Shown here: piece by piece, positions 3,220-5,278 of the stretch
Position numbering within the stretch: the stretch's first letter is position 1
Layout of the letters: every line of letters begins with the position of its first letter
Notes under the pieces: generated by a model
Told to the model about the DNA's origin: nothing
Databases searched by the model: none
What the model saw: only the letters and a program-made list of their open reading frames with translations
Made by a program: the position numbers and the translations under genes
From: a virus
Lineage: Duplodnaviria > Heunggongvirae > Uroviricota > Caudoviricetes
Reading direction: 5' to 3' (one strand)
DNA length: 5,278 nt
IMG/VR virus record: IMGVR_UViG_2778261227_000018
Location: 1-5,278 of that record

Positions 3220-3876
3220 TCACTCTCCTTTGATGCGAATGCCAGCGGCGCGCTCGGCTTCACTTTGTTCCCAAAACCACTTGTGAAGCTCCATAAGCTT
3301 TTCGTCAATCGGTGCATATTTGCGATTAAAGTAGGCCTGAGCATCTTGCTCAGATTCGTCCGGTAATTCGCCTGGGCCAAACAGTGTGTTATAAATCCAT
3401 GCCAGTCCGCTTTTAGCGTCGCCAGTCGATTGCCATTCGATAATCGCAGCCTGCATGACCAGAATGTTTTTCCCGATTAATAGGTCCAGTTCTTTGTACC
3501 GGTTGCGGATGTATGCATTCTCGCTTTGTAATTTTGCGTTGCGCTTCTCTGCGGCTTCCAGCTCAACACGCAGTTTCCCTACCGTTAGCGCAATTTCCTC
3601 GTTCTCCTGGTCGCGGCGTTTTATGTATTGCTGGTTTCTTTCCCGTTCATCTAGCAGCGCCAGCACGGTAGCCGGATTAGCCTTGGCAACAAAATCCCGG
3701 ACTGGCTTACAATCAATCTCCGCAATGGGTTGATACGATGTGTAGCCATGCTGTCTTGTATAACTACCGTGACGAATAACGAAAAAATCACCGTTTATTT
3801 TTTTAGCCTGCCACTTATCTTCACCGGCTTTCACTGCCGCCTCACGCAGTGCCTGATAGTCAATTTTGTTTGTCAT
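3220..3876 (-). CDS. Ead/Ea22-like coiled-coil phage protein (tentative family)
   Basis: 218-aa ORF. ATG 3876-3874 overlaps the upstream stop (TGA 3875-3873) as ATGA, with AGAGGT about 6 nt upstream. Central charged heptad-like stretch ERERNQQYIKRRDQENEEIALTVGKLRVELEAAEKRNAKLQSENAYIRNRYKELDLL suggests a coiled coil. N-terminal KIDYQALREAA resembles lambdoid Ea22-family proteins as I recall them. Confidence 0.55.
   Translation of the reverse strand: MTNKIDYQALREAAVKAGEDKWQAKKINGDFFVIRHGSYTRQHGYTSYQPIAEIDCKPVRDFVAKANPATVLALLDERERNQQYIKRRDQENEEIALTVGKLRVELEAAEKRNAKLQSENAYIRNRYKELDLLIGKNILVMQAAIIEWQSTGDAKSGLAWIYNTLFGPGELPDESEQDAQAYFNRKYAPIDEKLMELHKWFWEQSEAERAAGIRIKGE
3225..3230 (-). promoter_or_regulatory. 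Shine-Dalgarno (AAGGAG) for the PD-(D/E)xK-motif gene
   Basis: Reverse complement of ctcctt at 3225-3230; 6-nt spacer to ATG at 3218. Confidence 0.6.
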
Positions 3877-4751
3877 GTAACTACCTCTTCGAATTTCAAC
3901 TCCAGTTGATCACCCCAGATTTCACATGACTCTGAACACGAGCCGGTATCGAATCGCCCGGCCTGCACCATTGCCTGATACAAATTCCAGTAGTCGCTGT
4001 CGGCATACATTCTGGCAATCCCTTCAAGACTCAGATGACCACGGTACATAACGTCTTTACCTGTTCTGCGATGACCGTCCCTGACGTGTTGGCCTGTAAC
4101 CAGTTCATTAAAAACCCGCATCAGGCCAGGTTCGTCCTTACATGCAAGCCCCAGCTTTTGCGTTGACTTTTTGATGCAGAAAACACAGTTCCCGAGGTGC
4201 TCAGGGATAAGTAAATCGAACGGCTGTTTACGCCACCACCGGTTGATATCCGACTTATCAAAATCTGACAGTTCGGCGAGATACCGGACGCCCGGTTTCG
4301 GTTTCAGCCTGCGGGGTTCGTCTGCACGAATACCCAGCCATGTGATGTAATTCCCTGCTCCGAAATGGTCGTTGCAGTATTTGGTGAAGGGGACCAGTTT
4401 TAATCTGTCAGTGCAGAATGCGCCGCCGATGTATGGCGTGCCGTACTTTTTAACCATGTCCATAAACGGTTTAAGCACCGGCATTCGCGTCTGAATATCC
4501 TTTGGTTCCCATTCCGTATAACCATTTGGCTGCCCAAGTTCTGGATTTATATCGACCTGCAACACCGTTAGCGGTACGTTCCAGAACTTCACAACCTCAC
4601 GAATAAAGCGGTATGTCAGCGGATGTTCGCAACCGGTATCCATAAAGATGTAGCAGACGTTATTGCCAGCCTTTCTTTGTTCTTCCATCAGGTGAACAAG
4701 ATATGCAGATGTTCTCCCGCCAGAAAAACTAACTACATGAGTTATGCACAT
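3873..4751 (-). CDS. PAPS reductase family PP-loop ATP pyrophosphatase-like protein
   Basis: 292-aa ORF. N-terminal VVSFSGGRTSAY is a PP-loop (SGGxxS) motif typical of the PAPS reductase / DndC-like superfamily. C-terminal cysteines C-x2-C (CVFC) and C-x3-C (CSESC) are present. ATG 4751-4749 overlaps the 3' end of the upstream gene by 10 nt. Confidence 0.8.
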   Translation of the reverse strand: MCITHVVSFSGGRTSAYLVHLMEEQRKAGNNVCYIFMDTGCEHPLTYRFIREVVKFWNVPLTVLQVDINPELGQPNGYTEWEPKDIQTRMPVLKPFMDMVKKYGTPYIGGAFCTDRLKLVPFTKYCNDHFGAGNYITWLGIRADEPRRLKPKPGVRYLAELSDFDKSDINRWWRKQPFDLLIPEHLGNCVFCIKKSTQKLGLACKDEPGLMRVFNELVTGQHVRDGHRRTGKDVMYRGHLSLEGIARMYADSDYWNLYQAMVQAGRFDTGSCSESCEIWGDQLELKFEEVVT

Positions 4752-5278
4752 TTGCGTAATTCCGATAACTCGTTGAAGCGTTCCATAAACATCCCGTAGG
4801 CATGGCCCGGTGCCAGTGGAATCACGTTGAACATCTCTGTTGCCGGGATGCCTTCCAGTACAGGCCAGAAAGAGCCATCATCAAGCCCGAGATCGCGGCG
4901 TTCGGTTGCCAGCATGATGAGATCGGCATATTTCACGGGCGTACTCATAACCGTGGGTAACCCGTATTTCTCACGGATTACGGCGTCTATTTTTTCTTCC
5001 ATCTGTTTATAGTCAGGAAGAAGGCGTTTCAGTGGAGCGGGGATGTCCTGGCAATACGCTTCTGTTGCATCATGCATTAACGCTTCAAAAGCAAATTCCT
5101 GCGGTACCAGCTGGCTGCAAAGAACCGCATGTTGGGCGACGCTGTAGAAGTGCGAAAGATGACCGGCAAAGCGACAGATATTTGAAAGGGAAACCGCGAT
5201 ATCGTTAATATCGATGTCGTCTTTATTTATCCTGTCATAATAAAAATGCTTACCGGAAAAAGTTTTAATAAATGACAT
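4742..5278 (-). CDS. HD-domain phosphohydrolase (YfbR-like 5'-deoxynucleotidase-type, tentative)
   Basis: 178-aa ORF. H...HD...D arrangement is visible (VAQHAV, then ALMHDATEAY, then QDIPAP). ATG at 5278-5276 coincides with the window edge, so the start is unconfirmed and the gene may extend upstream. Confidence 0.7.
   Translation of the reverse strand: MSFIKTFSGKHFYYDRINKDDIDINDIAVSLSNICRFAGHLSHFYSVAQHAVLCSQLVPQEFAFEALMHDATEAYCQDIPAPLKRLLPDYKQMEEKIDAVIREKYGLPTVMSTPVKYADLIMLATERRDLGLDDGSFWPVLEGIPATEMFNVIPLAPGHAYGMFMERFNELSELRKCA

Follow-up and report, generated by a model that had tools for sequence, protein, structure and literature searches.

A yfdR gene and an orthologue of lambda ninC at an ordinary mosaic junction in an Escherichia coli lambdoid prophage

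The two genes that close the 5,278-nucleotide stretch of viral DNA analysed here (the window) are already catalogued, one as yfdR and the other as a relative of ninC of phage lambda, and they meet at an ordinary mosaic junction rather than making up a new two-enzyme system. They are very probably two independent accessory genes that were joined by mosaic recombination within one Escherichia coli prophage lineage. The original prediction had been of an HD phosphohydrolase and a PP-loop enzyme resembling PAPS reductase acting together as a translationally coupled pair; as a system this fails, and what remains is a junction of two known prophage genes. A by-product of the analysis is a sharper and testable lead on lambda NinC, the product of a gene without an assigned function in a model phage.

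The upstream gene runs from 4742 to 5278 on the minus strand in the ORF listing, its start codon being the final three bases of the window, and encodes a protein of 178 amino acids that is 97% identical to YfdR of E. coli K-12 over 178 of 178 residues; the same gene is named yfdR by PGAP in the 283 complete genomes that carry the junction (discussed below). That it encodes an HD hydrolase, as had been proposed, is well supported. PHROGs places the protein in phrog_318 (“dNMP phosphatase”) at 7.5e-110, while the Pfam match to YfbR-like/HD_3 falls slightly under the curated cut-off; the solved HD protein Atu1052 (PDB 2gz4) is matched at E = 4e-13, and alignment with it shows the metal-binding residues of the H...HD...D arrangement (H50, H69, D70 and D119) to be intact. 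The signature region that contains H50 and H69-D70 (5069 to 5131, minus strand; translation HAVLCSQLVPQEFAFEALMHD) aligns with the VAQH and LLHD motifs of Atu1052. K-12 YfdR is a weak 5'-deoxynucleotidase that also binds DnaA (PMC4776307), and on the strength of the 97% identity the protein encoded in the window is here assumed to be, likewise, a dNMP phosphatase and DnaA binder.

The downstream gene (3873 to 4751, minus strand, 292 amino acids in the ORF listing) belongs to the PAPS-reductase-like PP-loop ATP pyrophosphatase family, and its product aligns without gaps to lambda NinC over 285 of its 292 residues, at 79% identity (E = 0). It falls into phrog_33262/424 (“PAPS reductase”) of PHROGs at 1.4e-92, and is matched by Pfam PAPS_reduct (PF01507; E = 5e-9) over residues 5–72 only. 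The PP-loop motif itself, SFSGGRTSA, occupies residues 8–16 of the translation (4704 to 4730, minus strand). Judged on two family alignments (A1 and A2) that hold 34–37 homologues with identities down to 50%, residues S10, G11, G12, R13, S15 and A16 of this motif never vary, while conservation of S8 and T14 is at least 90%; also invariant are six cysteines, amongst which are those of the CxxC and Cx3C pairs. The two cysteine pairs to which attention had been drawn as possible ligands of a metal or Fe-S centre are, then, real and invariant in these homologues: they are C189-x2-C192 (CVFC; 4176 to 4187, minus strand) and C272-x3-C276 (CSESC; 3924 to 3938, minus strand), both read from the translation, and their pattern of conservation fits a putative metal or Fe-S site. 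All of the family motifs, i.e. SGGR(T)SA, C113/C126, GNCxFCxKK and C(S/A/T)ESCE, are present in the window protein and do not vary in the two alignments. A structure model, built from an alignment that did not contain lambda NinC, gives a predicted fold nearest to those of the APS/PAPS reductases and the [4Fe-4S] PP-loop sulfurtransferases; in this model the C272-x3-C276 pair sits in a C-terminal tail of low confidence (pLDDT below 50 for residues 273–292), which is probably flexible.

Both genes belong to an early-left operon, that of a lambdoid prophage of E. coli. The suggestion that they lie in a phage early region is borne out by synteny, the order in related annotated loci being repressor, yfdP, yfdQ, yfdR, ninC-like, ea22, DUF551, exonuclease and xis. 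In the window the next gene of the operon is an ead/Ea22-like gene (3220 to 3876, minus strand; PF13935 at 3e-26), which overlaps the stop codon of the ninC-like gene by 4 nt (ATGA). Overlaps of 4 nt are in fact found at all of the minus-strand junctions of the window that were checked (ninC/ea22, a gene of unknown type/DUF551, and DUF551/exonuclease), so that a tight overlap is nothing special to the yfdR/ninC-like pair. A scan for promoters and terminators between yfdR and the ninC-like gene gave no convincing signal.

The overlap between these two genes (4742 to 4751, minus strand) had been described as 10 nt long, and both the ORF listing and the sequence agree with this: read in gene orientation it is ATGTGCATAA, within which fall both the ninC-like start codon and the yfdR stop codon. 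This overlap belongs, however, to the 3' end of yfdR rather than to the pair, and is a shared module junction common to alternative downstream genes. An ATG at the same position, lying 10 nt ahead of the yfdR stop, is the start of yfdS in K-12, of eae in Lys8385Vzw and of gp32 in mEp460, and an SfV-orf29-like gene is also among those that begin there; since yfdS, eae and the SfV-orf29-like gene all use this ATG, the overlap is no mark of a dedicated pair. The first three codons of the ninC-like gene (MCI) derive from the yfdR junction, and the phage matches of a query spanning the junction start at window position 4744.

How widely the pairing is conserved was measured as adjacency, i.e. by counting junctions and neighbours, rather than as record-by-record co-occurrence across whole genomes. 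The 50,697 deposited phage records include 61 with a ninC-like gene and 49 with yfdR, and the junction is present in none of the 50,697 records, the 49 included. In complete E. coli genomes yfdR occurs at 3,888 places, and the junction is found in 283 genomes, corresponding to about 7% of the yfdR copies; for the other 93% another gene fills the downstream slot, with the same 10-nt overlap. Looked at from the opposite side, a full-length ninC-like gene is present in 433 complete-genome records of E. coli and stands behind yfdR in 283 of these (about 65%), the order being common and stable within its own E. coli lineage, and this stability could reflect selection and not shared descent alone. 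For IMG/VR, 80 NinC-like loci (33–94% identity) were searched for HD neighbours, by tblastn with the HD protein as query and by Pfam scans of the flanking proteins. A YfdR/HD neighbour lies upstream in 11 of the 80, and in every one of these 11 the NinC-like protein is at least 92% identical to that of the window; at the more divergent of these loci the pair is not seen, and the check on co-occurrence accordingly went against the prediction. Other upstream neighbours at the 80 loci include NinB (12 loci), replication proteins and Dam (4 loci), while Ea22, NinX, NinD, NinF and NinG are found downstream.

Four distinct contexts are on record for near-identical or orthologous ninC genes: behind yfdR, behind gp17 of Stx2a/Ss-VASD phages, within the nin region of lambda, and on an E. 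coli plasmid. Neither of the alternative upstream neighbours examined, Stx2a gp17 and a 226-residue protein of the E. coli plasmid, gave an HD match (Pfam at E ≤ 1, and PHROGs). The plasmid in question carries phage-type genes. The two protein families are also largely different in their distributions over phages and hosts, with NinC-like proteins counted in Vibrio (340), Stx2a-converting (62) and Salmonella (62) phages, and HD proteins in Bacillus (35), Caulobacter (32) and Escherichia (28) phages. A conserved functional unit was rejected following the junction searches, the tblastn search of the 80 loci and the Pfam scans of neighbours.

It must therefore be considered very unlikely that the two genes constitute a translationally coupled two-enzyme unit that modifies nucleotides or DNA, or acts on the nucleotide pool, in which (for instance) the HD enzyme might supply or remove a nucleotide intermediate that is adenylated or thiolated by the PP-loop enzyme. 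What speaks for such a unit is that the 10-nt overlap is real, that the junction recurs in the E. coli genomes and IMG/VR contigs just counted (283 and 11, respectively), and that nucleotides are substrates of both enzyme classes. Against this, since the junction-bearing NinC-like proteins are all at least 92% identical to that of the window, the copies of the junction may trace to one recombination event; the great majority of yfdR copies (93%) have some other gene in the slot with an equal overlap; no HD gene adjoins the NinC orthologues of lambda, the Stx2a phages, the E. coli plasmid, the Salmonella phages or the Vibrio phages; and the partners on record for yfdR are yfdQ and yfdS/T (PMC4776307).

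Two further readings concern the ninC-like gene more directly. It could be inert cargo, decaying or neutral, with neither gene adding to the fitness of the phage, and it is true that lambda ninC is dispensable (the gene is non-essential and its knock-down is without phenotype on a laboratory host) and that truncated NinC-like remnants are on record, comprising the 18% fragment that certain Stx2a phages carry and the partial proteins P0010, P0023 and P0063. However, the ORF in the window is intact, the motifs stay invariant in homologues as distant as 50% identity and from several host genera, and the family numbers 5,037 homologues at E ≤ 1e-5 and is found in 561 phage records; motifs so constant and homologues so widespread argue for purifying selection on the family, and render inert cargo highly improbable. 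Similarly improbable is that the PP-loop gene is a true CysH-like PAPS/APS reductase, acting as an auxiliary metabolic gene to raise sulfate assimilation by the host, even though the Pfam PAPS_reduct match, the nearest solved folds (CysH and APS reductases; PDB 6vpu, 2goy and 1sur) and the PHROGs category (“moron, auxiliary metabolic gene”) could all be taken to favour it. Identification as a genuine CysH was rejected, the score against NF002537 being 20.9 bits as compared with a cut-off of 154, and the Pfam match extending only over residues 5–72.

According to the favoured explanation, that of mosaic juxtaposition, yfdR and the ninC-like gene are separate accessory genes of an early-left (PL) operon of lambdoid type, and recombination at a conserved gene boundary has put the second beside the first in one prophage lineage. 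The generic 3' junction of yfdR takes varied downstream genes (yfdS, eae, SfV orf29-like or ninC-like), and the 10-nt overlap would ensure co-expression, as would the overlaps at all other junctions of the operon. The upstream product would be an HD-domain 5'-deoxynucleotidase of weak activity (the K-12 version binding DnaA also), and the downstream product a PP-loop ATP pyrophosphatase that stands alone within the PAPS-reductase/SspD/DndC branch. This NinC-like protein would most likely act alone, or in other phages together with DNA methyltransferases, as a counter-defence or DNA-modification enzyme that combines ATP-dependent adenylation with sulfur chemistry mediated by cysteines or an Fe-S centre; its target would plausibly be phosphorothioate-based Dnd/Ssp immunity.

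A role in DNA modification or anti-restriction had originally been proposed for both genes. For the PP-loop protein alone, and in preference to sulfate assimilation, this holds up as a hypothesis, one that is already in the literature, and it draws on the invariant PP-loop and cysteines, on the predicted fold, on the match to SspD, on methyltransferase fusions and on likeness to a protein of Vibrio phage 44E38.1. Placement relative to SspD and DndC was based on PADLOC HMM scores, in which SspD is the best match for 34 of 34 members of the NinC family, and for the window protein the values are 9e-15 for SspD, 2.6e-4 for BrxP and 1e-3 for DndC (15–16 bits). The profile comparison that had been suggested thus places the protein as SspD-like in its PP-loop half, and the CysH threshold is not reached. 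The SspD match is limited to residues 5–148, equivalent to profile positions 2–121 of 277, and past about residue 150 there is no match to any known family model. Roughly one in nine of the homologues from viruses carries a fused N6-adenine DNA methyltransferase, Dam/D12 fusions being recurrent, and the window protein shares 55% identity with the N-terminal 280 residues of p0018 from 44E38.1. A two-gene cassette of p0018 and p0019 gave escape from Dnd (Piel et al.; also cited in PMC13551039), and p0018 is so far the sole phage gene tied experimentally to such escape.

It is possible, although this can be advanced only tentatively, that lambda NinC and its stand-alone orthologues counter phosphorothioate immunity (Dnd, Ssp or BREX type 4), with yfdR uninvolved. 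NinC might serve as a surrogate for SspD or DndC, using the sulfur-mobilising partners of the host to mark phage DNA, or it might instead be a decoy that disables a host modification or sensing complex. If true, a counter-defence role would provide a function for a lambda gene that has lacked one since the genome was sequenced; the literature found on NinC consists of essentiality and interaction screens only, with no biochemistry and no function. NinC is not named in the literature found on the anti-Dnd cassette experiment, and for that reason the connection between NinC and Dnd may merit explicit statement, as a literature-level link and not as a new kind of system.

Comparison with known systems places these points in context. 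SspD, DndC and BrxP are cysteine-rich Fe-S/persulfide enzymes, and the window protein is cysteine-rich too, but a match over the full length of the SspD or DndC profile is not seen for it; those enzymes sit in defence islands, whereas the ninC-like gene is phage-encoded, and no sspABC or dndADE/iscS partner genes are found in the window or in the 80 related viral loci, nor do brx genes lie near it. The PAPS domain of 44E38.1 p0018 has PP-loop, CxxC and CSESC motifs as in the window protein, which is without the C-terminal Dam methyltransferase domain that p0018 possesses; the anti-Dnd effect was obtained in one experiment with p0018 and p0019 transferred together, so that any share of the PAPS domain lies within a joint effect. 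In the case of K-12 YfdR (CPS-53/KpLE1 prophage), yfdP and yfdQ lie upstream just as they do in the loci related to the window, and the 3' junction has the identical 10-nt overlap, but there yfdR is followed by yfdS/yfdT, and here by the ninC-like gene; nucleotidase activity and DnaA binding were measured on the K-12 protein, while the allele in the window is known from its sequence. The closest correspondence is with lambda NinC (Nin290/orf290, NP_040635), which agrees with the window protein in length, PP-loop and invariant cysteines, both being encoded by non-structural early genes of lambdoid phages. Lambda ninC has ninB and ninD as its neighbours in the early-right nin region, with no HD gene adjacent, whereas the gene in the window is flanked by yfdR and ea22 within the early-left operon, and so does not occupy the nin-region position between the replication genes and Q; this is a matter of position and not of homology, and Stx2a phages likewise carry a ninC-like gene in their early-left region.

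The window is a segment of a lambdoid prophage of the E. coli type, and the two open reading frames of the original prediction, their 10-nt overlap and the cysteine pairs were all found where it had placed them, both in an ORF listing and in the sequence. The HD gene occupies 4742..5278 (minus strand, 178 aa) and the PP-loop gene 3873..4751 (minus strand, 292 aa), the two sharing ATGTGCATAA in gene orientation, while the CVFC and CSESC pairs of the PP-loop protein are encoded at 4176-4187 and 3924-3938 respectively (both minus). The 292-aa protein matches Pfam PAPS_reduct over residues 5-72 only (E=5e-9), and over its full length the PHROGs family 'phosphoadenosine phosphosulfate reductase' (1.4e-92); the 178-aa protein matches Pfam YfbR-like/HD_3 slightly below the curated cut-offs, and over its full length PHROGs 'deoxyribonucleoside 5' monophosphate phosphatase' (7.5e-110). 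Public genomes already carry annotations of the two genes and of their adjacency: across hundreds of E. coli genomes PGAP labels the arrangement 'yfdR: 5'-deoxynucleotidase' next to 'phosphoadenosine phosphosulfate reductase family protein'. With both genes catalogued, the finding as originally posed is an ordinary one.

Judged by its sequence, the HD protein is YfdR: it aligns end to end, at 97% identity, with YfdR of E. coli K-12, the HD-domain protein of the CPS-53 prophage annotated as a 5'-deoxynucleotidase, and its H50, H69-D70 and D119 line up with the solved HD protein Atu1052. K-12 YfdR binds DnaA and, when overexpressed with YfdQ and YfdS/T, inhibits replication initiation (PMC4776307). 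Sequence and motifs likewise assign the PP-loop protein to the NinC family of phage lambda, with which it shares 79% identity in a gap-free alignment. Lambda NinC figures in a list of lambda proteins described as 'poorly understood' (PMC3224144) and is dispensable, its apparent essentiality in a CRISPRi screen having disappeared once Q was supplied (PMC10695390). In alignments with 34-37 homologues, down to 50% identity, the PP-loop residues S10, G11, G12, R13, S15 and A16 and six cysteines (C113, C126, C189, C192, C272 and C276) are invariant, and C41 and C204 are variable. In an AlphaFold2 model (pLDDT 84.8) confidence is high for the PP-loop core and low for the C-terminal tail, which bears CSESC.

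The proposal that the two genes form a functional pair was not supported by a survey of their co-occurrence. Among 50,697 deposited phage records searched at the DNA level, yfdR was found in 49 and the ninC-like gene in 61, and a junction spanning both in none; where the junction probe matches phage records, the matches begin at the yfdR end, window position 4744. Among 5,426 complete genomes of E. coli, yfdR occurs at 3,888 places (2,971 genomes), a full-length ninC-like gene in 433 records and the junction in 283 genomes, so that roughly 7% of yfdR copies have a ninC-like gene behind them and about two thirds of close ninC-like alleles sit behind yfdR. The junction-bearing copies are all near-identical, which is consistent with a single recombination event that later spread. 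In an IMG/VR sample of 80 loci encoding NinC-like proteins (33-94% identity), a YfdR-like protein is present in only 11, always directly upstream and always within the group of at least 92% identity. When the immediate neighbours were all scanned with Pfam, NinB appeared upstream in 12 of the 80 loci and YfbR-like HD in the same 11, with replication proteins and Dam (4 loci) as the other upstream neighbours and Ea22, NinX, NinD, NinF and NinG downstream, and at the protein level the two families occupy largely different phage groups.

Four settings are seen for near-identical or orthologous ninC-like genes. Some follow yfdR, and those of Stx2a/Ss-VASD phages follow an unrelated gene of 147 aa; lambda has its copy in the nin region, and a 91-kb E. 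coli plasmid bearing phage-type genes has another. Neither alternative upstream neighbour is an HD protein; the 147-aa product (L002:8355-8798, minus) is phrog_1363, and the 226-aa product on the plasmid (L006:5883-6563, minus) is phrog_874 with a sub-threshold ASCH match. In the yfdR and the Ss-VASD (gp17) contexts alike, DUF2303/yfdQ is found further upstream. Some Stx2a-converting phages (LC727853.1 and relatives) keep just the last ~54 ninC-like codons, at 89% identity, which shows that the gene has also been lost from this slot by deletion or recombination.

The tight coupling itself belongs to the yfdR 3' boundary and the operon, and is not evidence for a dedicated pair. In K-12 (yfdR/yfdS), phage Lys8385Vzw (yfdR/eae) and mEp460 (yfdR/gp32) the downstream ATG likewise precedes the stop of yfdR by 10 nt, the overlap reading ATGCGCATGA in these three as against ATGTGCATAA in the window. 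The junction ATG[C/T]GCAT[G/A]A (window 4742-4751; L087:2991-3000; L001, phage Lys8385Vzw, 9588-9597; L003:8409-8418) supplies the start codon of whichever gene follows, be it yfdS, eae, an SfV-orf29-like gene or the ninC-like gene, and appears to be a module-exchange boundary. NinC-like N-termini differ (MSTHHVVSF in Stx2a phages, MINVVSF in lambda, MCITHVVSF in the window), so that the first codons of the window protein derive from the yfdR junction. The other minus-strand junctions checked in the window, ninC/ea22, unknown gene/DUF551 and DUF551/exonuclease, overlap by 4 nt, and tight overlap is therefore a trait of the operon and of the yfdR boundary.

As to the other genes of the window, a mechanical ORF at 2703-3380 (minus, 225 aa) overlaps the Ea22-like gene; translation probably starts at 3218 instead, which gives the 171 aa of the MT225100 annotation, and the product has no Pfam domain (phrog_9263/631). 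The adjoining DUF551 gene is misannotated 'valyl-tRNA synthetase' in MT225100. An Rv2179c-like DEDDh 3'-5' exonuclease (1568-2143, minus; Pfam 4e-75), adjoining a PrtN/Xis-like gene, weakly matches a PADLOC model for CRISPR-associated DEDDh proteins; in work by Piel et al., mutations that let a phage escape retron Ec48 lay in an RNase T/DnaQ-like exonuclease of the phage (bioRxiv 10.1101/2021.05.05.442762). A Panacea/SocA-domain protein (1..573, plus; Pfam 2e-19) shares 4 nt with a 139-aa ORF (570..989; phrog_19071) that has no Pfam or PADLOC match, and downstream follow a 57-aa ORF (1029-1202) and a strong GC-rich hairpin terminator (1221-1246). From its sequence the 1-989 module looks like a PanA-type antitoxin with an unknown toxin; the Panacea/SocA module sits between int and xis in Lys8385Vzw (L001) and recurs in E. 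coli MSB1_9I (L005).

The original prediction had also proposed a role in DNA modification or anti-restriction and not in sulfate assimilation, which is reasonable for the PP-loop protein alone and finds no support for the HD pair. Among PADLOC defence profiles SspD is the best match in all 34 family members (best E=6e-19), followed by BrxP and DndC. CysH identity was rejected, the CysH equivalog score falling far under threshold. About one in nine viral NinC-like homologues carries a C-terminal fusion to an N6-adenine DNA methyltransferase, either Dam (PF05869) or D12-class (PF02086), as at L080:3950-5713, L041:4001-5446, L042:3974-5710, L043:3923-5485, L047:3998-5485, L081:3941-5737 and L045:2582-5485, the last a predicted ORF of 968 aa combining a C5-cytosine methylase (Dcm), NinC-like and Dam; in four further loci Dam lies directly upstream. 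One fused homologue (P0112) is p0018 of Vibrio phage 44E38.1 and matches the window protein at 55% identity across 283 residues. The joint transfer of p0018 and p0019 into a related phage allowed infection of a Dnd-carrying host, and an anti-Dnd system was described as 'related at least in part' to the PAPS domain (Piel et al., bioRxiv 10.1101/2021.05.05.442762); a 2026 paper again raises the possibility of an anti-defence role for PAPS reductases of phages (PMC13551039). A DNA-modification or anti-restriction role, unproven and already in the literature, would be a reasonable reading. It is a possibility, though less likely than not, that proteins of the NinC type act on their own as counter-defence enzymes against immunity based on phosphorothioates. 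The Piel et al. preprint does not connect the anti-Dnd PAPS domain with lambda NinC, and the residual interest lies in making that connection explicit. Compared with SspD and DndC, the window protein fits the SspD profile in its N-terminal half only and stands without partner genes nearby; it would work like these enzymes but is not one of them. Within the lambda NinC family, only its genomic position sets it apart.
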